Assembly (NCBI GenBank): GCA_028715785.1
Contig: JAQURC010000002.1
Span: forward strand, 8,402-72,401
DNA from: Candidatus Omnitrophota bacterium
GTDB lineage: Bacteria; Omnitrophota; Gorgyraeia; Gygaellales; Profunditerraquicolaceae
DNA: 64,000 nucleotides
Reading direction: 5' to 3'
Shown here: positions 1,724 to 52,100 of the stretch, piece by piece
Numbering within the stretch: position 1 is the stretch's first letter
How the letters are laid out: every line of letters begins with the position of its first letter
Program-made: the position numbers and the translations under genes
Notes under the pieces: model-generated
The model's input: the letters and a program-made list of their open reading frames with translations, nothing else
Database searches by the model: none
What the model was told of the DNA's origin: nothing

Positions 1724-1975
1724 ATGGCAGTACATATTCGACTAAGAAGGATTGGTAAAAATCCCGGCGGAAAGCCGCATTTCCGCGTTACCGTCTTTGA
1801 TGAGCGCAGGGGCCGGGACAGCCGGATAATCGAAGAGCTGGGTTATTATAAACCGACCAGCGGCTCGGCAGTGCTTAAGCAAGAGCGCATCGCAGCCTGG
1901 ATAAAAAATGGCGCCCAGTTGTCTGCAACCGTAAAGAGTTTATTGAAGAAGTCCAATAATACCCCGCGCTTATAA
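1724..1975 (+). CDS. rpsP: 30S ribosomal protein S16
   Basis: MAVHIRLRRIGKNPGGKPHFRVTV... typical S16 N-terminus; SD GGGAGG upstream. Confidence 0.9.
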   Translation: MAVHIRLRRIGKNPGGKPHFRVTVFDERRGRDSRIIEELGYYKPTSGSAVLKQERIAAWIKNGAQLSATVKSLLKKSNNTPRL

Positions 1976-2030
1976 GGAATTGCGCGCCTGCCTACCGGCA
2001 GGCAGGGGCAGCCCTTTTGGGCAAAGGAGC
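1961..2030 (+). repeat. gene-proximal hairpin+SD element, variant copy with extra palindrome (CCTGCCTACCGGCAGGCAGG) upstream of yajC; overlaps rpsP stop
   Basis: ACCCCGCGCTTATAAGGAATTGCGCG...GGCAGCCCTTTTGGGCAAAGGAG; rpsP ends ...NNTPRL* with TAA inside the element loop. Confidence 0.65.
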
Positions 2031-2035
2031 TTAAT

Positions 2036-2342: not shown

Positions 2343-4544
2343 ATGGAAAGAAAGCTGACCTATAAAATATTGCTTATCTTAGGCGTAATTGGATTGTGCG
2401 CATATTATACCTTTCCCCTGAGTAAGCATATTAACCTGGGCCTGGATTTGCAGGGAGGGATGCATCTGTTGCTTAAAGTTGATACCAGTCATCTTGAGGG
2501 AAAGGCAAAATTAGATGCCTGTGACCGGGCAGTCGAGGTTATCCGTAACCGCATCGATGAGTTCGGGGTCAGGGAGACTTCCATTCAAAAGCAGGGCGAG
2601 GATGAAATTGTAGTGCAGCTTCCCGGGGTTACTGACCGGCAGCGCGCCATTGATTTAATCGGTAAAACCGCAATGCTTGAATTTAAAGTTGTCTCCAATG
2701 ATGCGGATAAGCTCAAGGAGTCAATCGCCGGCACGATCCCTGAAGGTTATGAATTAAAATATTCTCAGGAAGAGAATGAGCCGTTATTGCTTGAGAAGAA
2801 AACCGTTTTAGTCGGGGATTCTTTAACCGATGCTTCGGTGCGTTTTGATCAAAGCCAATTCAGCGAGCCGATTGTTGCTTTACAGTTTAACGCCGCAGGC
2901 TCCAAGAAATTTGCCGAAATAACCGCGGCAAATGTAGGAAAGCGCCTGGCGATTGTCCTGGATGGAAAGGTGCAGTCAGCGCCCAGGATCAGGGAGGCGA
3001 TCCCTTCAGGGGAGGCGGTAATTACCGGCAGGTTTGATGTTCAAACTGCCCAGGACCTGGCCTTAGTTTTAAGGGTAGGGGCCTTACCTGCGCCAATGCA
3101 TATTGAGGAGGAAAGGACAATCGGCCCGTTATTGGGGCAGGATTCGATAAGTAAAGGAGTTAAGGCCTGCATTATCGGCATCGGCTTAGTTTTTATTTTT
3201 ATGGCTGTTTATTACCTTTTAGCCGGGATCGTTGCCAATATCGCCCTTATGCTTAACCTGCTTATAATCTTAGGATCGTTGGGCATGCTTCCTTTAATAT
3301 TTCCCGGCATATCCGCCACTTTGACTCTTCCGGGGATTGCCGGTATCGCTCTTTCTTTAGGTATGGCAGTAGATGCCAACGTCTTGATTAATGAGCGCAT
3401 AAGAGAAGAGTTGGCCGCGGGCAGAAGTTTACGCCTGGCAATAACCAACGGATATGGGAGGGCTTTTAGCGCCATATTCGATTCAAACCTTACTACCTTA
3501 ATTGCCGCGTTCCTTTTGTTCCAATTTGGCACCGGGCCCATAAGGGGTTTTGCGGTTACCTTAACCATCGGTTTGATTGCCAGCATGTTTACCGCTATTA
3601 TCGTAACCAGGGTAATCTTTGAACTCCTTTTAAATTCGGGAATCCTGAAATCATTGCCGATGTTAAAGTTGATCAAGGATACAAAAATAGATTTTATTAG
3701 CAAAAGAAAGATTTTTTATGCGCTTTCTATTGTAGTTACGGTAGTAGGGTTGGTTTCGTTCTTAATGAAAGGGAGCAAGGCTTACGGTATAGATTTTTCC
3801 GGAGGGCAGCTCCAGGAGTATATGTTTAAGGCCCCGCCTTCTGTTGATAAGGTTAGAAAGGTTTTAGACCAGATAAATCTCAGTAACGCTTCCATACAGC
3901 AGTTCAAAGACAACCCGAATGTTTTACTGATCAGGACCTCTGAAGATAAGAATGAGATATTGACTAAGGAACTAAAACAAAGTTTTCCCCAGGATGATAT
4001 TCAAGTTTTAAGGATCGAGCGCGTTGGCCCTGTAGCGGGAAAACACTTAAGGGATAAGGCGGTGCTGGCGCTTTTCTGGGCGTTGGCAGGGATCCTTATT
4101 TACGTTGCTTTCAGGTTCAAGCATTTTAACTTTGCGATCGCCGGGATTATCGCTCTTCTTCATGATGTTTTAGTTTCTTTGGGCATGCTTTCCCTGACCG
4201 GCAGGCAAATAGACCTTTTAAGCGTCACTGCTTTTTTAACTATTGCCGGCTATTCAATAAATGATACGATTGTTATTTATGACCGGGTGCGGGAAAATGC
4301 CAAGTTTTACCGCAAATTGAATCTTTATGAATTGATAAACCTAAGCGTGAATCAATGTTTGGGGAGGACGCTGCTTACCAGCGGAGTTACCTTGTTGTGC
4401 GTTTTGGCAATATTTTTATACGGTGGGGAGATCCTCGGTAATTTTTCTTTTGCTTTGTTAGTTGGTTTTTTCTGCGGAGCTTATTCTACGGTTTATATCG
4501 CTTCACCGCTGGTGCTTGCTTGGAGCCGCAAAAGCTCTAAATAA
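2343..4544 (+). CDS. secDF: protein translocase subunit SecDF (fused SecD-SecF)
   Basis: 733 aa; SecD periplasmic domain plus two six-TM halves; yajC-secDF synteny. Confidence 0.9.
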   Translation: MERKLTYKILLILGVIGLCAYYTFPLSKHINLGLDLQGGMHLLLKVDTSHLEGKAKLDACDRAVEVIRNRIDEFGVRETSIQKQGEDEIVVQLPGVTDRQRAIDLIGKTAMLEFKVVSNDADKLKESIAGTIPEGYELKYSQEENEPLLLEKKTVLVGDSLTDASVRFDQSQFSEPIVALQFNAAGSKKFAEITAANVGKRLAIVLDGKVQSAPRIREAIPSGEAVITGRFDVQTAQDLALVLRVGALPAPMHIEEERTIGPLLGQDSISKGVKACIIGIGLVFIFMAVYYLLAGIVANIALMLNLLIILGSLGMLPLIFPGISATLTLPGIAGIALSLGMAVDANVLINERIREELAAGRSLRLAITNGYGRAFSAIFDSNLTTLIAAFLLFQFGTGPIRGFAVTLTIGLIASMFTAIIVTRVIFELLLNSGILKSLPMLKLIKDTKIDFISKRKIFYALSIVVTVVGLVSFLMKGSKAYGIDFSGGQLQEYMFKAPPSVDKVRKVLDQINLSNASIQQFKDNPNVLLIRTSEDKNEILTKELKQSFPQDDIQVLRIERVGPVAGKHLRDKAVLALFWALAGILIYVAFRFKHFNFAIAGIIALLHDVLVSLGMLSLTGRQIDLLSVTAFLTIAGYSINDTIVIYDRVRENAKFYRKLNLYELINLSVNQCLGRTLLTSGVTLLCVLAIFLYGGEILGNFSFALLVGFFCGAYSTVYIASPLVLAWSRKSSK

Positions 4545-4549
4545 AAAAT

Positions 4550-4611: not shown

Positions 4612-6507
4612 ATGTTATTTAAATCACTCAAACTATATCCTAATCAAGATATTAACTTAGAAACTCTTTCTGAGGCCCTGGTTGATTTTGGTTACCGCAG
4701 GCAGAAGATGGTTTCCGCAGAAGGCGATTTTAGCCGCCGCGGTTCGATTATCGATATTTTCCCGGCCTCCTTTGAATTACCCATCCGTATTGAATTAGGT
4801 AATGAAAAAATCATTTCCATCAAAACTTTTAATCCTTCCAGCGGCCAGGCCCTTTGGCAGCATAATATCGTTATTGTCCTGCCGCATAAAAAGTCCTCAG
4901 GCGCCAGAGGCCGCGTATTTAACGAAAAGTTCCCTTTAAAAAATTTCGTAGATTTGAATATCGGTGATTTTGTAGTGCATAACCAGCATGGCATAGGAAG
5001 GTTCCTGGGCATGCAGAAGATCAAGGCAGGAAGCGGCCTTAAGGACCACCTGGTGATTGAGTATGACCGCAATGAAAAACTGTATGTGCCGGTTGACGCC
5101 ATGCACCTGGTGCAGAAGTATATTGCTTTTCACGCGGGGCGGCCTAAACTCTACCGTTTAGGCAATAAGCAGTGGCAGAGGGTAAAGGCGAAGGCGCGCA
5201 AGGGCGTTCAAAAGCTGGCCTGGGAACTATTGAGTCTGCAGGCAATGCGCCTGGCTTCTAAGGGGTTTAAGTTTTCCGCGGATACCGATTGGCAGGCTGA
5301 TTTTGAAAAGACATTTCCGTATGAAGAAACCCCCGATCAGGCCAAGGCAATGGCAGAGGTTAAGCTCGATATGGAATCTTTTAAGCCCATGGACAGGCTG
5401 CTTTGCGGGGATGTGGGGTATGGAAAGACCGAAGTAGCGATGCGGGCGGCATTTAAATCGGTGATGGACAATAAACAGGTTGCTTATCTTGTCCCGACCA
5501 CTATTTTAGCCGAGCAGCATTATAAGAATTTCACCGGCCGGTTGGCTAATTTTGCGGTAAATGTTGCGATGCTTTCCCGTTTTAAAACCATCAGGCAGCA
5601 AAAAGAAATTATCGAAGGGTTAGCCGACGGAAGCGTGGATATAGTTATCGGCACGCACCGGCTGCTTTCGGATGACGTGGTTTTTAAGGATTTAGGTTTG
5701 GTTATCGTTGATGAAGAGCAGCGGTTTGGAGTTGAGGCTAAAGAAAAGCTGAAAAAACTTAAAACTACCATCGATGTCCTGGTTTTAACTGCCACACCGA
5801 TCCCGCGCACCTTGTATATGAGTTTAATGGGGGCAAAAGAAATTTCGGTAATCAATACCCCGCCGCAAAATAGGTTGCCTATCAAGACGGTTGTGGTAGA
5901 ATATGATGCGGATTTGGTAACCCAGGCCATTAAGCGGGAACTGGCGCGCCGCGGCCAGGTGTTTTTTCTGCATAACCGTATCCTGGATTTGGAAAAAATC
6001 CGGGATAAGATCGCAAAGAATTTGCCGGCAGGCGCGAGGATTGCCATGGCCCATGGCCAAATGAATTCTTCTTTGCTTGAGCGGATCATGTCGGATTTTA
6101 TTTCCGGCAATATCGATGTTTTGGTCTCAACCATGATTATTGAATCCGGCATCGATATACCAAATGCCAATACCATTATCGTAAATAACGCGCAGATGTT
6201 TGGATTATCTGATCTGCATCAATTACGCGGCAGGGTGGGCAGGTTTAACCGGTCCGCCTACGCGTATTTTATGGTTCCTGGCAATATGGTTTTGGAAGCC
6301 GATGCCAAAAAACGGCTGCAGGCGATAGAGGAATACACCGAGCTGGGGGCCGGTTTTAATATTGCCATGCAGGATCTGGAGATCCGCGGGGCCGGCAACA
6401 TCCTGGGACAAGAGCAGCACGGATTTATCGTGGCTGTGGGGTTTGACCTTTATTGCAGATTATTAAAAGAAGCGGTGGTCAATTTTAAGAAAGCAGGGGT
6501 ATTTTAA
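4612..6507 (+). CDS. mfd: transcription-repair coupling factor Mfd, short form (RNAP-interacting domain plus RecG-like translocase; lacks the UvrB-homology N-terminal module)
   Basis: 631 aa; [14 protein letters not shown] (Mfd RID motif), DEAD/DEAH helicase motifs ([35 protein letters not shown]). Confidence 0.8.
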
Positions 6508-7418: not shown

Positions 7419-8367
7419 AGTCGGTATTACTATAGGCGACCCTTCGGGAATCGGACCGGCCGTTACCCTTAAGGCTCTTGAAATATTAAAAGGTAAGGCC
7501 GGTTTTACGGTTATCGGTAACCGCCTCGTGTTGGCTAAGGCGGCTAAAATCTTAAAAATACGCTCCTTGCCTGCGGAGTTAATCGATTTAAATAATGTTA
7601 ATCCGGGGAATTTTACATTCGGCAGTTTAAGCGCGCAAAACGGCCGGGCTTCTTTGGAATACCTCGATGCGGCTTTGGATTTGTTTAAGAAAAATAAAAT
7701 TGATTGTCTGGTTACCTGCCCGGTCTCAAAAGAAGCGATCAACCTGGCAGGAGCTGAATTTTCCGGCCACACAGAATATCTTGGTAAAAAGACAGGCTGT
7801 AAGGACCTGGTCATGCTGCTGCTTAACGCTAAATTAAAATTCAGTTTAGTTACCAGGCACGTGGCGCTTAAGGATGTCTGCGGATTGCTGGACCGTAAAG
7901 TTTTAAGAACCAATATCCTAAAGACAATCAGGGGCCTGGAGTCTTTATTCCTGATAAAAAAACCAAGGCTGGTTGTCTGCGGGGTTAACCCTCATGCCTC
8001 GGATAACGGAGTAATCGGTAAGGAGGAAGGGAGGGTTATTACGCCGGTTGTAAAAAGCCTGAAGAAAAAAATCAGGGGCGTTTCCATAACCGGACCGCTT
8101 TCTGCGGATGTGGCGATATCACAGGCCGCAGGCGGAAATTTTGATTGTGTAATTGCCGCTTATCATGACCAGGCGCTTATTCCTTTAAAGTTAACGGATT
8201 TTGACAGCGGGGTAAACCTTACCCTTGGCCTTCCTTTTGTGCGCACCTCTCCTTTGCACGGGACAGCTTTTGATATCGCCAAAAAGCCCGCTATGGCCGA
8301 TCCCGGCTCGCTGGTGGCTGCCATAAAACTTGCCATAAAATGCGCATCAAACCAAAAAAAAGCTTAG
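7375..8367 (+). CDS. pdxA: 4-hydroxythreonine-4-phosphate dehydrogenase PdxA
   Basis: VGITIGDPSGIGP N-terminal motif, GPLSAD, AYHDQALIP; overlaps surA end (start may be later). Confidence 0.8.
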   Translation: MNLKNNPTLKSSTIRVGITIGDPSGIGPAVTLKALEILKGKAGFTVIGNRLVLAKAAKILKIRSLPAELIDLNNVNPGNFTFGSLSAQNGRASLEYLDAALDLFKKNKIDCLVTCPVSKEAINLAGAEFSGHTEYLGKKTGCKDLVMLLLNAKLKFSLVTRHVALKDVCGLLDRKVLRTNILKTIRGLESLFLIKKPRLVVCGVNPHASDNGVIGKEEGRVITPVVKSLKKKIRGVSITGPLSADVAISQAAGGNFDCVIAAYHDQALIPLKLTDFDSGVNLTLGLPFVRTSPLHGTAFDIAKKPAMADPGSLVAAIKLAIKCASNQKKA

Positions 8368-12196: not shown

Positions 12197-12202
12197 AAAG
12201 TA

Positions 12203-12229
12203 CCCCGCGCTTAGCGGAATTGCGCGGGG
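12203..12229 (+). repeat. gene-proximal hairpin element, partial copy (hairpin 1 only: CCCGCGC-TTAGCGGAATT-GCGCGGG)
   Basis: Sequence family alignment; tandem with the next copy. Confidence 0.6.
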
Positions 12230-12244
12230 TTACACTATGGGCAA

Positions 12245-12294
12245 CACCCCGCGTTTATAAGGAATTACGCGGGTGTGTCCTACTGACAAGGAGG
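12245..12294 (+). repeat. gene-proximal two-hairpin+SD element (copy upstream of rplL; hairpin 2 variant GTGTCC-TAC-TGACA)
   Basis: CACCCCGCGTTTATAAGGAATTACGCGGGTGTGTCCTACTGACAAGGAGG then ATG. Confidence 0.7.
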
Positions 12295-12299
12295 AAGAA

Positions 12300-12683
12300 A
12301 TGGCAACTGCAAAAATGGAAGATTTAATCAAGTCAATTGAGACGATGAGCGTTCTTGAACTGGCCGACTTAGTTAAAGCTTTGGAGGAAAAATTTGGCGT
12401 AAGCGCAAACATGCCGATGGCCGCAGCGCCTGCTGCCGGTGCCGCAGGCGCAGCCCCCGCTGCCGAAGAGAAGAGCGCTTTTACCGTAGTGTTGACTAAT
12501 GCCGGGGCGAATAAAATCGCGGTAATCAAAGAAGTGCGCACGATTACCAGTCTCGGTTTGAAAGAAGCCAAAGATTTAGTCGATGCCGCTCCTAAGCCGA
12601 TCAAGGAAGGCGTAAATAAAGAAGAAGCTGCGGAAATGAAGAAGAAATTAGAAGCAGCCGGGGCTACCGTAGAATTAAAGTAA
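12300..12683 (+). CDS. rplL: 50S ribosomal protein L7/L12
   Basis: [34 protein letters not shown]..., Ala/Pro hinge; start corrected to ATG after SD (ORF-track start at 12273 runs through the repeat). Confidence 0.95.
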
Positions 12684-12719
12684 GTTTGAATAAACAGGCC
12701 AAAGGCCGGCCATAAAATA

Positions 12720-15700
12720 ATGATCAAACGAAAAAATTTTGCCAAGATAAAAGAAGTTTACGATCTGCCCGATCTTTTAGACGTTCAGCTGGATACGTAC
12801 CGTGAATTTCTGCAGATGGATGTTCCGGCGGCAGAAAAGAAAAATCAGGGATTGCAGGAAGTTTTTGGCGAGATCTTTCCTATAGAAAATGCCGACCGTT
12901 CGGTAAAGCTGGAATTCATCAGCTATTCTTTGGGAAAGCCCAAATACACGATGAGCGAGTCCAAAAACCGCTCATTGACCTATGCGGCTCCGTTAAAGGT
13001 GAAATTCCGCCTGACTACTCCCCGGGAAACCAAAGAGCAGGACGCTTATTTCGGGGAGATCCCTTTAATGACCGAGACCGGGACCTTCATTATCAACGGC
13101 GATGAGCGCGTAGTCGTCAGCCAGCTGCAGCGCTCCCCCGGAGTATCCTTTGAAGAAGAATTACATCCTACCGGAAAGAAGATCTTTTACGGCCGGATCA
13201 TCCCTTACCGCGGAGCCTGGCTGGAATTTAAATATGACCTTACCGAAACAGTCACCGCTTATGTTGACCGGCGCAGGAATTTTCCCGCAACCCAAATTTT
13301 AAGGATTTTAGGTTTTTCGCAAGACCAGCAGATATTTGCCGCTTTTGGCAAAGAGCATCCCGAAATCGTCAATACCTTAAAGAAAGATTACACTAAAAAT
13401 AAAGAAGAAGCATACCTTGATTTCTACCGTAAGATGCGGCCGACGGAGCCGGTAACTAAAGAGGCAGCCGAAGGCCTGTTTTACAGGTTATTTTTTGATC
13501 CCGCCAGATATGATCTAGAAAGAGCGGGCCGTTTTATTTTGAACCGTAAATTGGGGATGGAGGTGTCTTTAGATAAAAGGATACTTGATTCCGATACGGT
13601 AATTAAGGTGATCGAGTATTTAATCAAACTTAATGCCGGTTCGGGAAAGATCGATGATATTGACCACCTGGGAAACCGCCGCGTAAAGAGCGTCGGAGAG
13701 TTAGTTCAAAATCAGGTGCGTATCGGTTTATCCCGCGTTGAGCGTTCAATTAAGGAAAGGTTAAGTATTTTAGGGGAGTTTGATAATTTAAACGTGCATT
13801 ACCTGATCAATTCCAAACTGTTAAGCAACCAGATACGGGATTTCTTCGGGCGCAGCCAGTTGTCCCAGTTTATGGACCAGATCAATCCTTTGGCAGAAAT
13901 GACGCATAAGCGCCGTTTAAGCGCTTTAGGGCCGGGAGGGCTTTCACGCGAAAGAGCCGGGTTTGAGGTCAGGGATATCCATCCTTCACATTATGGAAGA
14001 GTTTGCCCTATCGAGACACCGGAAGGGCCAAATATCGGTTTGATTGCCTCTTTGAGCTGTTTTGCGCGGATTAATTCTTTGGGTTTGATCGAGACTCCTT
14101 ACCGTAAGGTAGAAGACGGCAGGGTGACTAAAAAATTTGAATATTTGACCGCAGACATCGAAGAGGATAAGTTTATCGCTCAAGCTGATGTCCCGTTAGA
14201 CAGCGAAGGGCGTTTTGTGGATAGGTTTGTTACCTGCCGCTATAAAGATGATTTTCCGAAAGTGCCGGCAAAAGACGTGCAGTATATGGATGTTTCCGCA
14301 AAACAGCTGGTTTCAGTTGCCGCCTCCTTAATTCCTTTCCTGGAGCATGATGATGCCAACCGCGCGTTAATGGGTTCAAACATGCAAAGGCAGGCTGTCC
14401 CGCTGATGATTACCGAGACGCCTTTGGTGGGAACAGACATGGAAGCAAAAGTTGCCCAGGATTCCGGCACCGTAGTTATCGCCGAGGATTCCGGGAAAGT
14501 AACCAGCGTAGATGCTTCAGCCATTACCGTGGGCAAGAAAATTTATCATCTGAAGAAATTTTTGCGCACTAATGCCGACACATCGATAAATCAAAGGCCG
14601 CTGGTAAAATTAGGCGACCGAATCGAAGCAGGGCAGGCAATCGCAGATGGCGTTGCTACCAAAGAAGGGGAACTGGCTTTAGGCAAGAATGTTTTAGTTG
14701 CTTTAATGCCCTGGAGAGGTTATAACTTTGAAGACGCTATTCTTATCAGCGAAAGATTGGTCAAGCAGGATTCTTTTACTTCGATTCATATCGAAGAATT
14801 TGAGATTGAAGCTGCCGAGACCCGGCTTGGCAATGAAGAGATCACCCGCGATATCCCTAACGTCAGCGAAGAGGCTTTACGGAACCTTGATGAGGACGGG
14901 ATTATCCGCGTCGGGGCAGAGGTTGGAGCCGGGGATATCCTGGTCGGCAAAATTACTCCCAAGACCGATTCTGAGCCCAGCCCGGAAGAAAGATTACTGC
15001 GCGCGATTTTCGGCGAGAAAGCCGGCGATGTGCGCGATACTTCTTTAATTGTCCCTCCCGGGGTTGAAGGGGTAGTTATCGATGTCCATGTTTTTCAGCG
15101 TAAGGACCGCGGCCGTAAAACTAAAGAAGAAAAGACCAAAGAGCTGGCTAAAATCCGCGAGCTCAAGGCTTATTATAAACAAGAGGTCGAGTTTTTACAG
15201 GTTGAGAAAACCTTGCGTTTATCTCAAGTGCTGGGCATAGATAAGAAAAAAGTAGAGAAGTTTGATTTTAGCGATAATGAAGAGGCAAAGATTTTGGCTG
15301 CCTCCTTTGACGAGCAGATGCAGGAATTGTTGGCTGAAGAGGAGCAGGAGATTGAGAAGGTGCGCCGCGGGGATGAATTGCCTACAGGTATCTTAAAGAG
15401 GGTTGTGGTTTATGTGGCTACAAAACGCAAGCTTTCCGAAGGCGATAAACTTGCCGGCCGGCACGGTAATAAAGGTGTTGTTGCCAGGATTATCGCCGAA
15501 GAAAATATGCCTTATATGCCCGATGGTACTCCGGTAGATGTGGTTTTGAACCCATTAGGCGTTCCTTCGCGTATGAACGTAGGCCAGATTTTGGAATGCC
15601 ATTTGGGTTGGGCAGCAAAAGCGTTAGGTATAAATGTCAGCTGTCCGGTATTTGACGGAGCAAAAGAGGTTGAAATCAAGGAATTGCTTAAGAAAGCCGG

Positions 15701-21042: not shown

Positions 21043-23139
21043 ATGAGAAAGATTCCTTTAGATAAAATTAGAAATATTGGAATAATTGCCCACATCGACG
21101 CCGGAAAAACTACCACCAGCGAGCGCGTTTTGTTTTATACCGGTAAAAATTATAAGATTGGCGAGGTGCATGACGGGGCAGCGACTATGGACTGGATGGT
21201 CCAGGAGCAGGAGAGGGGCATTACGATTACCGCTGCCGCTACTACTTGCAAATGGAAGGATATCACGATTAATTTAATCGATACTCCCGGCCACGTAGAT
21301 TTTACTATCGAAGTGGAAAGATCGTTGAAGGTTCTGGACGGTGCGGTAGTTGTTTTTTGCGGAGTCGGCGGAGTTGAACCGCAATCAGAAACCGTATGGC
21401 GCCAGGCGGACCGTTACGGCGTTCCAAGGATCGCCTTTGTTAATAAAATGGACCGCACCGGTTCGGATTTTTTTGCGGCAATTGACCAGATGCATGAAAG
21501 ACTGGGGGCTAATGTTGCGGCTATTCAGCTTCCCGTTGGCAGGGAGAGCGGTTTTAACGGCCTGGTGGATCTGGTTGAAAAAAAATTAATCCATTACGAA
21601 GAAATTCTAGGTAAAGAATTTGAAGTAAAAGAGCTTCCGGAAGAGATGTTTGGCGATTTTGAAAAATACCGCGCGATTCTTGTCGAAAAAGTCGCTGAAG
21701 CGGATGATAAGATCATGGAAGATTATTTACAAGGTAAGACTGTAACTAACGAAGAGTTAAAAGCAGCGATACGCAGGAGCGTACTTATAAATAAATTTGT
21801 GCCGGTACTTTGCGGTTCAGCTTTTAAGAATAAAGGCGTGCAGATGGTTTTGGACGCGGTCAGAGACTATCTTCCTTCTCCGCTTGATGTCCCTCCGGTA
21901 AAAGGCACAAATCCGGATTCCGGAGAATTTGAAGAGGTAAAGGCCGATGATAATGCTCCTTTTGTCGCGTTATGTTTTAAGGTAGCCACCGATCCTTTTG
22001 TGGGAAAAATATTTTTTGTAAGGATGTATTCCGGAACGCTTACTTCAGGAACTTATATTTACAATGCTTCAAAGAGAGAAAGAGAGCGGGTTACTAAGAT
22101 TGTTAAATTGCATGCTAACCATCAGGAGGTAACTGACAGTATTTCCACAGGAGATATTGCTGCCTTTGTCGGTTTAAAAGATACAAAAACCGGAGATACC
22201 CTTTGTACCGAGAAAAATCCTATTCTTGTTGAGGCGATGCGTTTTCCGGATCCGGTTATCCAGCAGGCAATCGAACCTAAGTCCAAGGACGCCCAGGAAA
22301 AATTGGGTATGGCCATGCATAAGCTGGAAGATGAAGATCCGTCATTTAGAGTTACCTATAATCAGGAAACAGGCCAAACACTTATCGCCGGGATGGGGCA
22401 GTTACATTTGGAAATTATTGTCGATAGAATTTTACGCGAGTTTAATGTTGAGGCTACCGTGGGCGCTCCGCAGGTTGCTTATCGGGAAACGATCAGGAAA
22501 AGTGTTTCTAGCGTCGGAAAATTTATTTCCCAATCCGGCGGCCGCGGCCAATACGGCCATTGCGTTATTGAGATGAGCCCGCAAGAGACTCCCGGGACCG
22601 GTATTACATTCGAAGATAAAATTAAGAGCGGGGCAATTCCGCGCGAATTTATTCCTGCGGTAAAACAGGGAGTAATGGGTGCTGTCAAAAACGGGACATT
22701 AGCAGGATATCCGGTTACCGACGTCAAAGTCGTTTTGGTCGACGGGTCATTTCATGAAGTTGATTCTTCAGAGTTAGCGTTTAAAATGGCAGGGAGCATC
22801 GCGTTTCAGGATGGAATGAAAAAAGCCAATCCTGTTTTATTGGAACCGATTATGGATATTGAAGTTGTGGTACCTGAAGAATTTATGGGCCAGATTATCG
22901 GTGATCTCAGCAGCCGGCGCGCAAAAATAATTGCCCTTGGTCAGAGGCTGAACTTGCGTACTATCCGAGCCAATGTTCCGCTGTCGGAAGTTTTTAATTA
23001 CGCAACCGTAACAAGATCCTTGACACAAGGCCGTGCATCATATACAATGGAACCTTCTTTTTACAGCGAAGTTCCAGCACAGGTAGCTGAAAAAGTTATT
23101 CAAGGCTCAACCAATACAAAAGAAAGAAAAACTTTTTAA
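21043..23139 (+). CDS. fusA: elongation factor G
   Basis: 698 aa; G-domain [22 protein letters not shown]. Confidence 0.97.
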
Positions 23140-23145
23140 AAAAAC

Positions 23146-23196
23146 ACACCCCGCGCTTATAAGGAATTGCGCGGGTGTGCCCCTAGGGGCAAGGAG
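23146..23196 (+). repeat. gene-proximal two-hairpin+SD element (upstream of tuf)
   Basis: CACCCCGCGCTTATAAGGAATTGCGCGGGTGTGCCCCTAGGGGCAAGGAGG. Confidence 0.75.
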
Positions 23197-23204
23197 GATA
23201 AAAA

Positions 23205-27428: not shown

Positions 27429-27761
27429 ATGATCTCAAGAGCGGAAGGAAAATTTTTAAGGATTTCACCCAGTAAGGTGCGCATCGTTGCCGATCTTATC
27501 CGCGGCAAGGATGCCCTCCAGGCGCAAAGTATCCTGCTGCATTTGAATAAAAGGTCAAAAGAGTACCTGATAAAAATATTGAAATCCGCGATCGCTAACG
27601 CTAAAGTCAAGGGTTTTGCGGCCGAGAAATTATATGTTTCCAAGATTGTTTGTAATCCCGGGCCGATGTGGAAAAGATTTAAGGCCGCTGCTTTTGGCCG
27701 GGCCGCGTCAATAGTTAAACGTACGGTGCATATAAAAATTGAATTGGATTTAAAAGCTTAG
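27429..27761 (+). CDS. rplV: 50S ribosomal protein L22
   Basis: MISRAEGKFLRISPSKVRIVADLIRGK...; start corrected from ORF-track 27294 to in-frame ATG just after the rpsS stop. Confidence 0.93.
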   Translation: MISRAEGKFLRISPSKVRIVADLIRGKDALQAQSILLHLNKRSKEYLIKILKSAIANAKVKGFAAEKLYVSKIVCNPGPMWKRFKAAAFGRAASIVKRTVHIKIELDLKA

Positions 27762-27811
27762 CACCCCGCGCTTATAATGTATTGGGCGGGTGTGCCCTTT
27801 TGGGCAAGGAG
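27762..27811 (+). repeat. gene-proximal two-hairpin+SD element (upstream of rpsC)
   Basis: CACCCCGCGCTTATAATGTATTGGGCGGGTGTGCCCTTTTGGGCAAGGAG. Confidence 0.75.
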
Positions 27812-27819
27812 AATAATTC

Positions 27820-30875: not shown

Positions 30876-30878
30876 ATT

Positions 30879-30929
30879 ACACCCCGCGCTTATAATGAAT
30901 TGCGCGGGTGTGCCCGTGTGGGCTAGGAG
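30879..30929 (+). repeat. gene-proximal two-hairpin+SD element (upstream of rpsH)
   Basis: CACCCCGCGCTTATAATGAATTGCGCGGGTGTGCCCGTGTGGGCTAGGAG. Confidence 0.75.
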
Positions 30930-30934
30930 AATAA

Positions 30935-31330
30935 ATGTCCAGGACAGATTTAATCGCAGATGTTTTTACAATCATACGTAATGCAATATTGATTAAACGG
31001 GATACCGTGGATCTTCCGGCTTCCGGTAACATCAAATCGATTATGGCTATTCTTAAAAAGAATGAATACATCGATAATTTTAAGCTGATTGAAGATAAAA
31101 AGCAGGGATTGGTAAGGGTTTATTTAAAGTATACCGCCGGAAAATCAGCTATCCGCAATATCAAGCGGGTTTCCCGGCCGGGTTTGAGGGTTTATGCTCG
31201 AGGCAAAAAGGTCCCCACAGTTTTGCGCGGCAGGGGCCTGGCAATCGTTTCTACTTCTAAGGGCGTAATCACCGATAAAGAAGCCAGGGAGTTGGGTGTG
31301 GGTGGCGAAGTTATTGGTTATATTTGGTAA
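30935..31330 (+). CDS. rpsH: 30S ribosomal protein S8
   Basis: MSRTDLIADVFTIIRNA... S8 family. Confidence 0.95.
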   Translation: MSRTDLIADVFTIIRNAILIKRDTVDLPASGNIKSIMAILKKNEYIDNFKLIEDKKQGLVRVYLKYTAGKSAIRNIKRVSRPGLRVYARGKKVPTVLRGRGLAIVSTSKGVITDKEARELGVGGEVIGYIW

Positions 31331-31332
31331 AT

Positions 31333-31381
31333 ACCCCGCGTTTATAAGGTATTGCGCGGGTCTGCCCTTGCGGGCAAAGGA
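31333..31381 (+). repeat. gene-proximal two-hairpin+SD element (upstream of rplF; stem G-U variant, weak SD AAGGAAA)
   Basis: ACCCCGCGTTTATAAGGTATTGCGCGGGTCTGCCCTTGCGGGCAAAGGAAA. Confidence 0.7.
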
Positions 31382-31388
31382 AAAATAA

Positions 31389-36377: not shown

Positions 36378-36390
36378 AATTATTTTTTAA

Positions 36391-36440
36391 CACCCCGCGC
36401 TTAAAAGGAATCGCGCGGGTCTGCCCGCCTGGGCAAGGAG
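36391..36440 (+). repeat. gene-proximal two-hairpin+SD element (upstream of rpsM)
   Basis: CACCCCGCGCTTAAAAGGAATCGCGCGGGTCTGCCCGCCTGGGCAAGGAG. Confidence 0.75.
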
Positions 36441-36448
36441 CTTAAAAT

Positions 36449-36859
36449 ATGCCAAGAATTATCGGTGTTGATATACCAAAAGAAAAAAGGATTGAGATTG
36501 CTCTTACTTATTTATATGGAATAGGCAGGGCGCTTTCAAATGTTGTGCTTAAGGAAGCAGGGATCAACCCGGATAAGCGGGCCAAGGATTTAAGCGAAGA
36601 GGAGGTCTCCCGGATTACCAATATTTTGCAAAAAGGGACATGGAGGATCGAGGGGGATTTACGGCGCGATATATCGCAGAATATCAAGCGCCTTATGGAC
36701 ATTGGTTCCTGGAGGGGGATGCGCCATAAAAAAGGCCTTCCGGTCAGGGGTCAGCGCACGCGCACTAATTCGCGTACCAGAAAAGGCAAGAAGAGGGTAA
36801 ATCTTGCTCCTATAAAAAAAGCCGAACCGGCAAAAGCCGCTAAGCCTGCCGCAAAATAA
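36449..36859 (+). CDS. rpsM: 30S ribosomal protein S13
   Basis: [26 protein letters not shown]. Confidence 0.95.
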
Positions 36860-36861
36860 TA

Positions 36862-36910
36862 CACCCCGCGCTAATTTGAATTGCGCGGGTGTGTGTTCGT
36901 ACACAAGGAG
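36862..36910 (+). repeat. gene-proximal two-hairpin+SD element (upstream of rpsK; hairpin 2 fully covaried TGTGT-TCGT-ACACA)
   Basis: CACCCCGCGCTAATTTGAATTGCGCGGGTGTGTGTTCGTACACAAGGAG. Confidence 0.75.
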
Positions 36911-36921
36911 ATAAAAATAAA

Positions 36922-40750: not shown

Positions 40751-42003
40751 GCCAAGCGACTATAGCCGAAAAAATATTAAGCAAGCATGCCGGTAAAACC
40801 TTGCGCGCAGGAGATTTTGCGGTCTGCAAAATTGATTTTGCTTTTGGCCAGGATGGAACCTCCTCGATAATTATCGACCGGATAAAAGAGCTGGGGGTAA
40901 AAAAAATAAAAACCAAGTTTTGCATGGTAATTGACCATAGCGCCCCCAGCCCCAGCGAAGGGGTTTCCCGGGTGCATAAGAAGATGCGCGATTTTTCGCA
41001 GGATTTTAATACGGAAATTTTCGATATCGGCTGCGGGGTTTGCCATCAGGTTATCCCTGAATCGGGAAATGTTTTACCCGGAGATTTAGTTTTAGGGGCA
41101 GATTCCCATACCTGTACCTATGGGGCACTGGGGGCATTCTCTACGGGTGTGGGTTCTACGGATCTGGCGATAGCTTTAGCTACGGGAAAGAATTGGTTTA
41201 AAGTCCCGGCAACCGTGAAAATTATCGTTACGGGAAAACTTCCCAAAGGGGTTTTTGCCAAGGATATAATTTTGCATATAATCGGTAAATTAAAAAGTGA
41301 CGGGGCTACCTATAAAGCAGTTGAATTCTACGGCCCGGCGATTAATAATATGGGTATGGACGGCCGGTTCACTGTTGCCAATATGCTGGTTGAGATGGGG
41401 GCAAAGACAGGCTTTCTGCCGGTTGATGATAAAACCGCTGCCTGGTTAAAATCCAGGGTTAGCGGCAGCCGGCGCATTGAACATATTACCGCAGACAAAG
41501 GGGCTCTTTATGAGAATGTTTATGAGTTTGATATTTCAAAACTTGAACCGGTGGTTTCTATGCCCCATAGCGTAGATAATACCGCGCAGGCATCGACTTT
41601 AAAAAAGGTAAAAATAAACGAAGCTTTTTTGGGCACCTGTACTAACGGCCGGATCGATGATTTGAAGGTTGCGGCAAAGATCTTGAATAAACGCAAGGTT
41701 TCTCCGCAAGTTAAATTAATTATTGCTCCGAGTTCCCGCAGCGTCTATCTGGAGGCTTTAAAACTCGGCCTGGTTGAGATATTTATCAAAGCCGGGGCAG
41801 TGATTGTGGCTCCGGGCTGCGGCCCTTGCGTGGGCACGCATAACGGTATTCCCAGCGACGCAGAAGTGGTGATCTCAACCGCAAATCGTAATTTTAAAGG
41901 CAGGATGGGAAATCCTTCGGCTTTTATTTATCTGGCTTCTCCGGCTACGGTGGCGGTTTCGGCGCTTAAAGGTTACATTAGTGATCCCAGGGATTATTTC
42001 TAA
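40732..42003 (+). CDS. leuC: aconitase-family hydro-lyase large subunit, small type (3-isopropylmalate / homoaconitate dehydratase LeuC-like)
   Basis: 423 aa; Fe-S ligand context GTCTNGR, CGPCVG; paired LeuD-like gene downstream. Confidence 0.75.
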   Translation: MDNKTMSQATIAEKILSKHAGKTLRAGDFAVCKIDFAFGQDGTSSIIIDRIKELGVKKIKTKFCMVIDHSAPSPSEGVSRVHKKMRDFSQDFNTEIFDIGCGVCHQVIPESGNVLPGDLVLGADSHTCTYGALGAFSTGVGSTDLAIALATGKNWFKVPATVKIIVTGKLPKGVFAKDIILHIIGKLKSDGATYKAVEFYGPAINNMGMDGRFTVANMLVEMGAKTGFLPVDDKTAAWLKSRVSGSRRIEHITADKGALYENVYEFDISKLEPVVSMPHSVDNTAQASTLKKVKINEAFLGTCTNGRIDDLKVAAKILNKRKVSPQVKLIIAPSSRSVYLEALKLGLVEIFIKAGAVIVAPGCGPCVGTHNGIPSDAEVVISTANRNFKGRMGNPSAFIYLASPATVAVSALKGYISDPRDYF

Positions 42004-42004
42004 C

Positions 42005-42053
42005 CACCCCGCGCTTATAAGGAATTGCGCGGGTGTGCCCGTGTGGGCAAGGA
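42005..42053 (+). repeat. gene-proximal two-hairpin+SD element (upstream of pilT)
   Basis: CACCCCGCGCTTATAAGGAATTGCGCGGGTGTGCCCGTGTGGGCAAGGAGG. Confidence 0.75.
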
Positions 42054-42060
42054 GGAATTG

Positions 42061-47002: not shown

Positions 47003-47007
47003 ACCAT

Positions 47008-47056
47008 CACCCCGCGCTTAGAGGAGTTGCGCGGGTGTGCCCTGGTGGGCAAGGAG
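47008..47056 (+). repeat. gene-proximal two-hairpin+SD element (upstream of lipoyl-domain gene)
   Basis: CACCCCGCGCTTAGAGGAGTTGCGCGGGTGTGCCCTGGTGGGCAAGGAGG. Confidence 0.75.
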
Positions 47057-47062
47057 GTTACC

Positions 47063-51854: not shown

Positions 51855-51867
51855 AATTAGACAATTT

Positions 51868-52100
51868 GGTAAACTTATAGGTTAAGGGAAATCCGTAAAT
51901 ACGGATGCGGTCCCGCCGCTGTAAGGGCAGACGAAAACTGCATAAGTCACTGTCTTTAGTGTTAAAGACGGGAAGACGCAGTAAGTAGGTTAGAAGCCCA
52001 AGCCAGAAGACCTGCCTATATAAAGAATGGTAATGCCTCGTGGAATGGGTTAAGAAATATTTGGGTGCAACCCGTCAGCAACTGTGGCGGGTTTTTTGTT
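51868..52100 (+). promoter_or_regulatory. cobalamin (B12) riboswitch with intrinsic-terminator expression platform
   Basis: AAGGGAA, CCCGCCGCTGTAAG, GTCACTG (B12 box), GGGAAG, GACCTGCC conserved blocks; terminator ACCCGTCA-GCAACTG-TGGCGGGT + TTTTTTGTTT at 52069-52100. Confidence 0.6.

Follow-up and report, generated by a model that had tools for sequence, protein, structure and literature searches.

Is the pair of hairpins that precedes the rpsK gene of a Candidatus Omnitrophota bacterium maintained by selection on its structure and, if so, does that selection act on RNA? The locus lies in a 64-kb stretch of DNA (hereafter, the window) containing an all-plus-strand ribosomal-protein superoperon (secE-nusG-rplKAJL-rpoBC-rpsLG-fusA-tuf-S10-spc-alpha), whose nearest relatives in our genome collection are Candidatus Omnitrophota metagenome-assembled genomes (MAGs). 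The hairpins, at positions 36862-36910, sit within the 62-nt spacer between the rpsM stop codon (36857-59) and the rpsK start codon (AUG, 36922), and the protein encoded downstream belongs to Pfam Ribosomal_S11. A first-pass annotation had proposed that compensatory base changes in both hairpins reflect selection on RNA structure. We found that the element is a real structured repeat rather than a chance pattern, since its stems vary by matched double substitutions, and selection for the hairpin is strongly supported.

The element reads, from 5' to 3', as a (C/U)AC flank, a first hairpin (P1), a second hairpin (P2), the Shine-Dalgarno sequence (SD) AAGGAGG, a gap of 5-9 nt and the AUG. The two-hairpin element is ~55 nt long; the unit without the SD measures ~48 nt, and P1 by itself 26-30 nt. 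P1 is composed of 7 bp, plus 2 bp beyond an invariant bulged C (an invariant A-U pair and a covarying pair: CG 98, UA 22, GC 6), and carries a loop of 11-12 nt, UUAUAAGGAAUU. P2 (5-6 bp with a 4-nt loop; UGCCC-N4-GGGCA in most window copies) abuts P1 directly, and the SD follows after 0-1 nt. In the rpsK copy, CCCGCGC (36865-71) pairs with GCGCGGG (36883-89) around the loop UAAUUUGAAUU (36872-82), and P1 is extended past the bulged C36864 by the pairs A36863-U36890 and C36862-G36891. P2 (UGUGU-UCGU-ACACA, 36892-36905) then follows with no linker, and the SD (AAGGAG, 36905-10) comes directly after it. Because window copies begin 1-12 nt 3' of the upstream stop codon and the foot of P2 touches the SD, the element occupies the entire spacer. 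The SD itself was unpaired in all six minimum-free-energy (MFE) folds of window copies.

This arrangement is not confined to rpsK. The pattern CCCGCG-N8-20-CGCGGG had nine matches in the window, all on the plus strand, compared to 0.10 expected; the element is therefore far above chance. Looser searches recovered two further copies, at 1963 and 27765, and the window holds 11 copies of the two-hairpin element, every one on the plus strand. They precede yajC, rplL (a full copy and a decayed tandem copy), tuf, rpsC, rpsH, rplF, rpsM, rpsK, a PilT-like ATPase gene and a lipoyl-protein gene, and seven of the eight spacers of at least 40 nt in the ribosomal-protein cluster consist of this element. 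All 11 lie between genes of co-directional operons, with only the rpsP frame overlapping one copy; metagenome copies are intergenic as well.

Comparison of the window copies bore out the substitutions described in the first-pass annotation. The sequence of P2 differs and yet its stem is kept: UGUGU-UCGU-ACACA upstream of rpsK (three pairs altered on both sides) and UGUC-CUACU-GACA upstream of rplL (one pair altered on both sides), against UGCCC-N4-GGGCA in most others. In P1, the rplL copy reads CCCGCGU/ACGCGGG, a C-G to U-A change of the closing pair, and the rplF copy CCCGCGU/GCGCGGG, with a U.G wobble. The loop, by comparison, is nearly invariant, being exactly UUAUAAGGAAUU in four of the 11 copies and differing at one to four positions elsewhere.

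We then considered copies beyond the window. Metagenomes were scanned with the pattern ACCC-N5-TTATAAKGWATT-N5-GGT, in which the loop is fixed and five P1 pairs are unconstrained, and at least 120 stretches were retrieved; all counts on metagenome copies refer to the matches listed. Of 123 such matches, 98 can form all five free pairs and 14 contain a single mismatch; the other 11 show no pairing and are chance or unrelated matches. The probability that five random pairs all form is ~0.007. At least 14 stem variants occur among the listed matches, each with its complement (CGCGC, CGCGU, GGCGC, GGCGU, UGCGU, CACGC, CACGU, AACGC, GACGC, AGCGC, AGUGC, UUCGC, UUCCC and UUCCU). A model-based alignment (146 copies, 1658 stem cells) that combined the window with two related genomes and metagenomes gave the same picture: 97.5% of cells were paired, compared to 80.3% after shuffling and 36-54% with slid partners, and double changes were present at 11 of the 12 pairs. 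Compensatory double changes accounted for 247 cells, wobbles for 18 and unpaired cells for 42 (2.5%); shuffles yielded 40.5 double-change cells, and none of 500 reached 247. Disruptive changes as frequent as compensatory ones, which would speak against the annotation's claim, are thus not what the 146 copies contain (247 double versus 42 unpaired). This alignment is fitted to a model and its copies are kin by descent; the stem-free scan and an independent MAFFT alignment analyzed by RNAalifold, which recovered P1 with its extension and bulge, are free of model fitting.

The level at which selection operates is less clear. In a strand-asymmetry test of RNA versus DNA, the counts of G.U (19) and A.C (13) did not differ significantly, and Watson-Crick pairs make up nearly all of the stems. 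Hence, of the annotation's conclusion, selection for the hairpin stands with strong support, and its assignment to RNA is unproven, given that G.U is about as frequent as A.C, that copies occur nested and in tandem, and that ~10% are reversed; a mechanism that keeps palindromes through single-stranded DNA (ssDNA) or through copying would yield equal covariation.

Placement relative to genes offers another line of evidence. In ~70 of ~108 unique pairing copies (~65%), P2 and the SD follow, and the start codon lies 25-30 nt past P1. The remaining copies are 5' of a tandem or nested copy, a terminator-like hairpin or a tRNA, and a few are reversed beside a gene start. Judged against flanking open reading frames (ORFs; 90 aa or longer), 76 copies have the sense orientation and occupy co-directional spacers, and 11 are antisense, a number that includes some miscalls. 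The genes of contig L114 all run on the minus strand, and so does its SD-adjacent copy, 5' of clpP. On L102, a sigma-70-type promoter (TTGACT-16-TATAAT) ends 24 nt 5' of the copy preceding the enolase gene; the element is therefore found in primary 5' untranslated regions (UTRs) as well as between cistrons. L120 and L086 have a promoter arrangement that, by eye, resembles that of L102. As a separate observation, TTGACA-17-TACAAT (11/12 sigma-70-like) occurs at 23020-23048 of the window, inside the 3' end of fusA and ~100 nt 5' of the tuf copy. This match could serve as an internal promoter for tuf, in which case the tuf copy would lie in a primary 5' UTR.

The genes that follow are largely highly expressed ones, with some less obviously abundant proteins too, and at least 60 different gene families are preceded by the element. 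They include EF-Tu and ribosomal proteins L7/L12, S3, S7, S8, L6, S13, S11, L16, S20 and L31, together with DnaK, GroES, ClpP, trigger factor, enolase, ferritin, the ATPase c subunit and ArgG. By partition function, the SD had a predicted unpaired probability of 0.52 next to the native element; the value fell to 0.45 when the element was shuffled (Wilcoxon p = 2e-5), and control genes gave 0.43.

To what extent is the element old? In L001 and L002, the closest two genomes, a covariance model matched diverged copies; it had no significant match in L003-L007 (distant Omnitrophota, RplE identity 57-74%) or in 23 loci from other phyla, so the family appears confined to a sublineage; the stem-free pattern had no match in viral contigs. 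The tuf, rpsH, rplF, rpsM, rpsC and rplL junctions keep the element in relatives whose third-codon identity is 0.43-0.63. Element identity at these six orthologous sites is 0.57-0.96, with compensatory changes; at the rpsC orthologue, for example, P1 changed from CCCGCGC to CCAACGC with GCGUUGG opposite, and P2 from UGCCC to UGUCU. Occupancy of the same six sites despite saturated synonymous divergence points to long-term maintenance, via selection or via homogenization between copies.

Turnover is equally apparent. The window lacks the rpsG and rplP copies seen in relatives, L001 lacks the rpsM copy and L002 the rpsK copy. Whole units are nested within the P1 loops of others; the junction is invariably between ..GG and AATT, and no target duplication is seen (L136, L168 and L134; L002:2379-2533; L001:8375-8478, 4634-4737 and 5456-5556; L157:4931-5016; L161:234-331). 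In L136 and L168 the outer loop is split as TTATAAGG|AATT without duplicated bases. The common P2 of inner units is UGCGCU-N4-AGCGCA, and near-identical inner units occur in differing contexts in L134 and L169. Tandem arrays were seen in the window (12204 and 12248), L113, L142 and L177. A subfamily with the stem UUCCC/GGGAA has CUAAYNC-UUUC-UGNRUUA as its P2, and its loop, if transcribed, is the exact complement of the main-family loop. Both element polarities occur on L114, and in the distant L006 the reversed UUCCC/GGGAA form lies directly 5' of the tuf SD. As G.U is no commoner than A.C, units nest and ~10% of copies are reversed, a mobile palindrome at the DNA level may contribute.

The reading that we favor, with a probability of about 0.5, is that the element belongs to a dispersed family, resembling repetitive extragenic palindromic (REP) sequences, in one Omnitrophota lineage, and that selection keeps it as a cassette in mRNA leaders or between cistrons, where it favors independent initiation and stability. 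The element would be transcribed within mRNA as a standard leader or intercistronic cassette, and its stable rod would lock up the upstream spacer sequence such that the SD and start codon stay single-stranded. Initiation downstream would then be uncoupled from the translation and folding of the upstream cistron. Moreover, structure would be added to the 5' end of any processed or primary transcript and to the 3' end of the upstream cistron, with slower exonucleolytic decay as the predicted outcome. The P1 loop would probably be contacted by a putative trans partner, either the 30S platform with the anti-SD or a protein. The family would spread and turn over by duplication at the DNA level (tandem, nested, and gain or loss between species), and the copies retained would be those kept via selection on the RNA fold. 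Support for an RNA-level role comes from the sense bias, the abutment of the SD, the promoter upstream of the L102 copy and the retention at orthologous sites.

Several points weigh against the cassette. Its candidate function is deduced from placement, and the predicted gain in SD accessibility is small, giving modest support. About 20% of copies have no SD following (the next feature is another copy, a terminator or a tRNA), ~10% are antisense to their neighbors, the UUCCC/GGGAA subfamily is mostly reversed beside gene starts, and presence varies among close relatives at rpsG, rplP, rpsM and rpsK. Near-pure Watson-Crick stems are atypical of RNA families and are expected from palindrome copying at the DNA level. 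Lastly, a conserved loop is superfluous for a simple insulator. Its consensus in 39 copies picked without regard to loop sequence is U(U)A-NNN-GG(A/U)AUU, the GG(A/U)AUU portion being close to invariant and GGA occurring in only 27 of the 39. Such conservation implies a trans partner, and possible options are SD-like pairing, a CsrA-like protein, an RNase E-type cut, or kissing with reversed copies.

If the cassette reading is true, an entire uncultivated lineage gives its ribosome-binding sites a standard 5' boundary by means of a single portable structured module, and uses that module within very long operons to set expression levels for EF-Tu, L7/L12, other ribosomal proteins and chaperones. 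The synthetic 'insulator' parts of bioengineering would then have a natural counterpart, and the family would be a clear case of a repeat kept via selection on RNA structure. For practical purposes, the element marks gene starts in Omnitrophota metagenome bins, and its conserved loop is a handle for finding its reader.

The foremost alternative, which we regard as possible though on balance unlikely, is that the element is a selfish or neutral DNA palindrome of the REP, REPIN (paired REP) or MITE (miniature inverted-repeat transposable element) kind. Its ssDNA hairpins would be the substrate of an HUH/Y1-type transposase or of template switching, any effects on mRNA would be incidental, and copies would survive only where harmless, that is, in short spacers before an SD. 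The bulged base and conserved flank do recall the hairpins bound by IS200/IS605 TnpA and by REP-associated tyrosine transposases (RAYTs). Tandem arrays, insertions nested at ..GG^AATT of the loop without target duplication, near-identical inner units in different contexts (L134, L169), gain and loss between close relatives, the presence of both orientations, and near-perfect Watson-Crick stems with G.U about as frequent as A.C all fit this explanation. Moreover, the element has the properties by which REPs are operationally defined, being extragenic, palindromic, consensus-bearing, multi-copy and, as to P1 taken by itself, short (PMC12306157). A palindrome of this sort, however, would not readily account for a sense:antisense ratio of ~7:1 relative to genes, for a 3' end that meets the SD with 0-1 nt of slack in ~65% of copies, or for its persistence at six orthologous sites although synonymous divergence is saturated. 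Conservation is stronger in the loop than in the stems, the reverse of classical REPs, and a GTAG-type 5' tetranucleotide and inverted doublets are both absent. No Y1/RAYT homolog was found either: tblastn with approximate queries for IS200 TnpA, IS608 TnpA and E. coli RAYT had no match in the window or in Omnitrophota loci, a weak negative as these are genome fragments, and the positive control matched L032, so the query itself works. Were the element nonetheless a mobile palindrome at the DNA level, its loop-targeted nesting would point to an uncharacterized insertion mechanism.

Doubtful, in our judgment, is the proposal that a global post-transcriptional factor docks on the P1 loop and that the family is a regulon of highly expressed genes. 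The candidates are a CsrA-like dimer that would control translation by spanning from the GGA in the loop to the one in the SD, ~30 nt away, an endoribonuclease (the RNase E motif RN|WUU is fitted by loop GA|AUU), or an RNA with a complementary loop (AAUUCCUUAUAA in reversed copies). A loop that is conserved while stems covary freely, with GG(A/U)AUU near-invariant in copies unselected by loop, is what docking predicts; the second GGA in the SD at a fixed distance, the two polarities on L114, and a coherent high-expression set of downstream genes are also in its favor. By contrast, 12 of the 39 unbiased loops have GGU, UGA or AGU in place of the GGA that CsrA normally requires, the outer loop is split in nested copies, and the trans partner is only hypothetical. 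A tblastn search for CsrA, Hfq, RNase E and RNase Y found no match in the small genome fragments searched and is hence uninformative. More speculative, and in our view improbable, is a genome-wide, modular leader-cassette regulon read by a dedicated trans factor (a protein or a complementary-loop RNA) and propagated by a new mechanism of self-targeted insertion of whole units at GG^AAUU in the loop, in which this factor would co-ordinate translation or decay of mRNAs for the translation apparatus, chaperones and central metabolism. We consider very unlikely a role in double-stranded DNA, with loop TATAAG as the -10 box of an internal promoter within an inverted-repeat operator that raises transcription of tuf, rplL and others. 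TTATAAG resembles TATAAT, the rpsC copy reads TATAAT and was called by a promoter scan, and the sense bias and fixed distance to the start codon are compatible with a promoter. Nevertheless, a conserved -35 and a TG extension are both missing, columns 1-3 of the alignment vary, promoter-like matches in the window are at the chance level (27 versus 24.6 expected), and the copy in L102 is already downstream of a good promoter. A transcript begun after the -10 box would also miss the 5' arm of P1, and a protein half-site model does not predict the covariation of both P1 arms, the pair beyond the bulge and P2. An intrinsic terminator or attenuator between cistrons is barely credible: GC-rich hairpins do lie in spacers, and a few copies are just 5' of terminator-like hairpins (L139, L173, L177, L185, L187), but AAGGAGG rather than a U tract follows P1 and P2, a terminator scan called none of the window copies, and the element resides inside operons that need read-through. 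It is the missing U tract that identifies the element as something other than a terminator. Neither the promoter nor the terminator reading accounts for the covariation.

Three further groups of candidates were set aside. An autoregulatory leader of ribosomal-protein genes, which is particular to a single operon and imitates the rRNA site bound by that operon's regulatory protein, was ruled out because the same element precedes at least 60 gene families, including those of DnaK, GroES, enolase, ferritin and ArgG. A riboregulator that sequesters the SD, such as an RNA thermometer or a translational riboswitch, was ruled out by an SD that is unpaired in the six MFE folds and more open than in shuffled or control sequences. 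tRNA-like or RNase P substrates, K-turns, CRISPR repeats, type III antitoxin arrays and processive-antitermination RNAs were dropped because their defining features are absent.

Has the element been described before? At gathering threshold, Rfam 15 matched only a cobalamin riboswitch and two tRNAs across the whole window and no family for the element, and when the region of the tuf copy was scanned permissively (E up to 10), only noise emerged. In the literature on hairpins, intergenic repeats and RNA motifs of Omnitrophota (Omnitrophica), we found no description of it. It is apparently undescribed and a strong candidate for a new RNA family.

Among known repeats, REPs stabilize flanking mRNA and affect the translation of neighboring genes. 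Like REPs and bacterial interspersed mosaic elements (BIMEs) of Enterobacteria and Pseudomonas, the element is a short, GC-rich, extragenic, transcribed, consensus-bearing palindrome, often clustered within operons. An operational definition describes a REP as an extragenic, usually transcribed, palindromic stem-loop that is short (14-40 nt in E. coli), has a consensus and is multi-copy (PMC12306157). P1 alone measures 26-30 nt, and the full unit without the SD, at ~48 nt, somewhat exceeds E. coli REPs. In REPs it is the stem that is conserved; in the element, whose two hairpins adjoin, the 12-nt loop is conserved and the stems vary. The element also differs in its direct tandem or nested clusters (inverted doublets in REPs), in its ~7:1 sense bias and in a 3' end fused to the SD. 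Unlike REP-RAYT systems, its flank is (C/U)AC with an invariant A-C (columns 5-6) and no GTAG; unlike REPINs, its clusters are tandem or nested in the same orientation, with no inverted pair; and unlike MITEs, the unit ends (CAC... ...GCA) are not inverted repeats, and nested copies lack a target-site duplication. The Correia elements of Neisseria are marked by terminal inverted repeats and a TA target duplication, and they bring promoter activity and RNase III sites. Our element resembles these and other MITE-like repeats in being small, dispersed, beside genes and, putatively, co-transcribed with an effect on expression or processing, but none of these four Correia features was seen in it. 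Mycobacterial interspersed repetitive units (MIRUs) are 40-100 bp intercistronic repeats that are proposed to act on the expression of the downstream cistron, by translational coupling via small frames that overlap its start codon and the preceding stop codon; covarying hairpins are no part of their definition. The element shares with MIRUs its position in intercistronic operon spacers, its transcription-aligned orientation and its tandem arrays, yet it is non-coding, hairpin-based and SD-adjacent.

A comparison can also be made with single leaders. In the E. coli ompA and the B. subtilis aprE and ermC leaders, and in cryIIIA STAB-SD, a stable hairpin or SD-like sequence upstream of the ribosome-binding site protects the mRNA and helps abundant proteins to be expressed. 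The element similarly places a hairpin 5' of the ribosome-binding site of abundant proteins, its P1 loop often contains the SD-like UAAGGA, and its effect is likely to be similar; those stabilizers, however, serve a single gene and need a hairpin very near the 5' end, whereas the element is a repeated family. CsrA/RsmA leaders carry one GGA in a hairpin loop and another in or close to the SD; a loop GGA ~30 nt from the SD GGA would fit this geometry, but, as noted above, a GGA is not a constant of the loop. The plastid intercistronic expression element (IEE; PMC2230500) is reported to be, like our element, a short intercistronic sequence, and it lets the downstream cistron be expressed as a stable translatable unit, an effect that our element likely shares. 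The IEE is described as a chloroplast protein-binding site at a single locus, in contrast to a covarying twin hairpin that is dispersed.

The individual copies in the window are compiled in the table below, together with the sites of the UUCCC/GGGAA subfamily; bit scores are from the covariance model, built from the nine complete window copies, that also matched the diverged copies in L001 and L002.

Positions of the element in the window (by position; scores in bits) and of the UUCCC/GGGAA subfamily in other loci
Feature	Position	Strand	Score	Context and remarks
yajC copy	1957..2033	+	34.2	5' of yajC; neighbors S16, YajC
Degenerate tandem copy	12201..12245	+	24.3 (P1 only)	after rplJ; P1 intact, 12204-12228; loop UUAGCGGAAUU; P2 decayed; no SD
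rplL copy	12242..12297	+	67.7	immediately 5' of rplL (L7/L12); P1 closing U-A; P2 UGUC-CUACU-GACA
tuf copy	23144..23200	+	79.8	fusA-tuf spacer; consensus sequence; downstream protein EF-Tu
rpsC copy	27759..27815	+	77.5	rplV-rpsC spacer; one G.G mismatch in P1; loop UUAUAAUGUAUU
rpsH copy	30877..30933	+	78.9	rpsN-rpsH spacer; loop UUAUAAUGAAUU
rplF copy	31329..31385	+	70.3	rpsH-rplF spacer; P1 closing pair U.G wobble; loop UUAUAAGGUAUU
rpsM copy	36388..36444	+	74.9	rpmJ-rpsM spacer; loop UUAAAAGGAAUC; P2 UGCCC-GCCU-GGGCA
rpsK copy	36859..36914	+	68.8	between rpsM and rpsK; P1 36862-36891; fold z = -3.0
PilT-like ATPase copy	42002..42058	+	81.1	after aconitase-family large subunit gene; AUG 42061
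Lipoyl-protein copy	47005..47060	+	72.4	dihydrolipoyl-dehydrogenase-like gene to 78-aa lipoyl-domain gene; AUG 47063; loop UUAGAGGAGUU
UUCCC/GGGAA subfamily sites	L113:420-518, L114:5168-5225, L121:29-86, L126:6410-6460, L131:1426-1477, L184:53-107, L006:2597-2653			

The yajC copy departs from the others in two respects. Its P1 has an additional hairpin, CCUGCC-UACC-GGCAGG (1987-2002), inserted into the 3' arm. Moreover, the rpsP (S16) frame (window 1724-1975) enters this copy by four codons and ends on the UAA of the P1 loop (1973-75), so the copy supplies the final residues and the stop codon of S16. A small palindrome, GCCUGCC-N4-GGCAGGC, recurs at the inserted hairpin (window:1987-2002), in L121 (~90-115), upstream of the element in L174 and at L006:18214-18517. 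At window:40732-43607, the gene of the PilT-like T2SSE ATPase and its element copy interrupt an aconitase-family (LeuC/LeuD-like) pair of large and small subunit genes, an unusual arrangement.

Two observations concern tRNA genes. In L141, an antisense copy of the element lies beside the corresponding tRNA. At window:9343-9653, tRNA-Thr and tRNA-Trp flank a 49-aa L33-like ORF just 5' of secE-nusG, with no copy there. Elsewhere in the window, the cobalamin riboswitch (RF00174, 88.4 bits; 51862-52033) is 5' of ABC-transporter-like and cobalamin-salvage-like ORFs.

Other structured repeats were noted in related genomes. L002 has a separate repeat, not present in the window, before rplR, the next ribosomal-protein gene and rpmJ (3574-3649, 4466-4549 and 8189-8275). 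It reads GAACCCCGCACCUUCUU, ~20 nt, then AAGAAGYGUGGGGUUUGAAUAAUAAAUAAGGAAGGUGCGGGGUG (start). Its 5' arm is predicted to pair with either the middle segment or the SD and GUG start, and it looks like an SD-sequestering switch. L004, a distant Omnitrophota MAG, has three ~95-nt tandem repeats with hairpins 5' of secY (12496-12774), and L006 has several unrelated hairpin-rich spacers in its ribosomal-protein operons. From these repeats in L004 and L006, structured intercistronic spacers seem to be common in the phylum, with families that differ by lineage.

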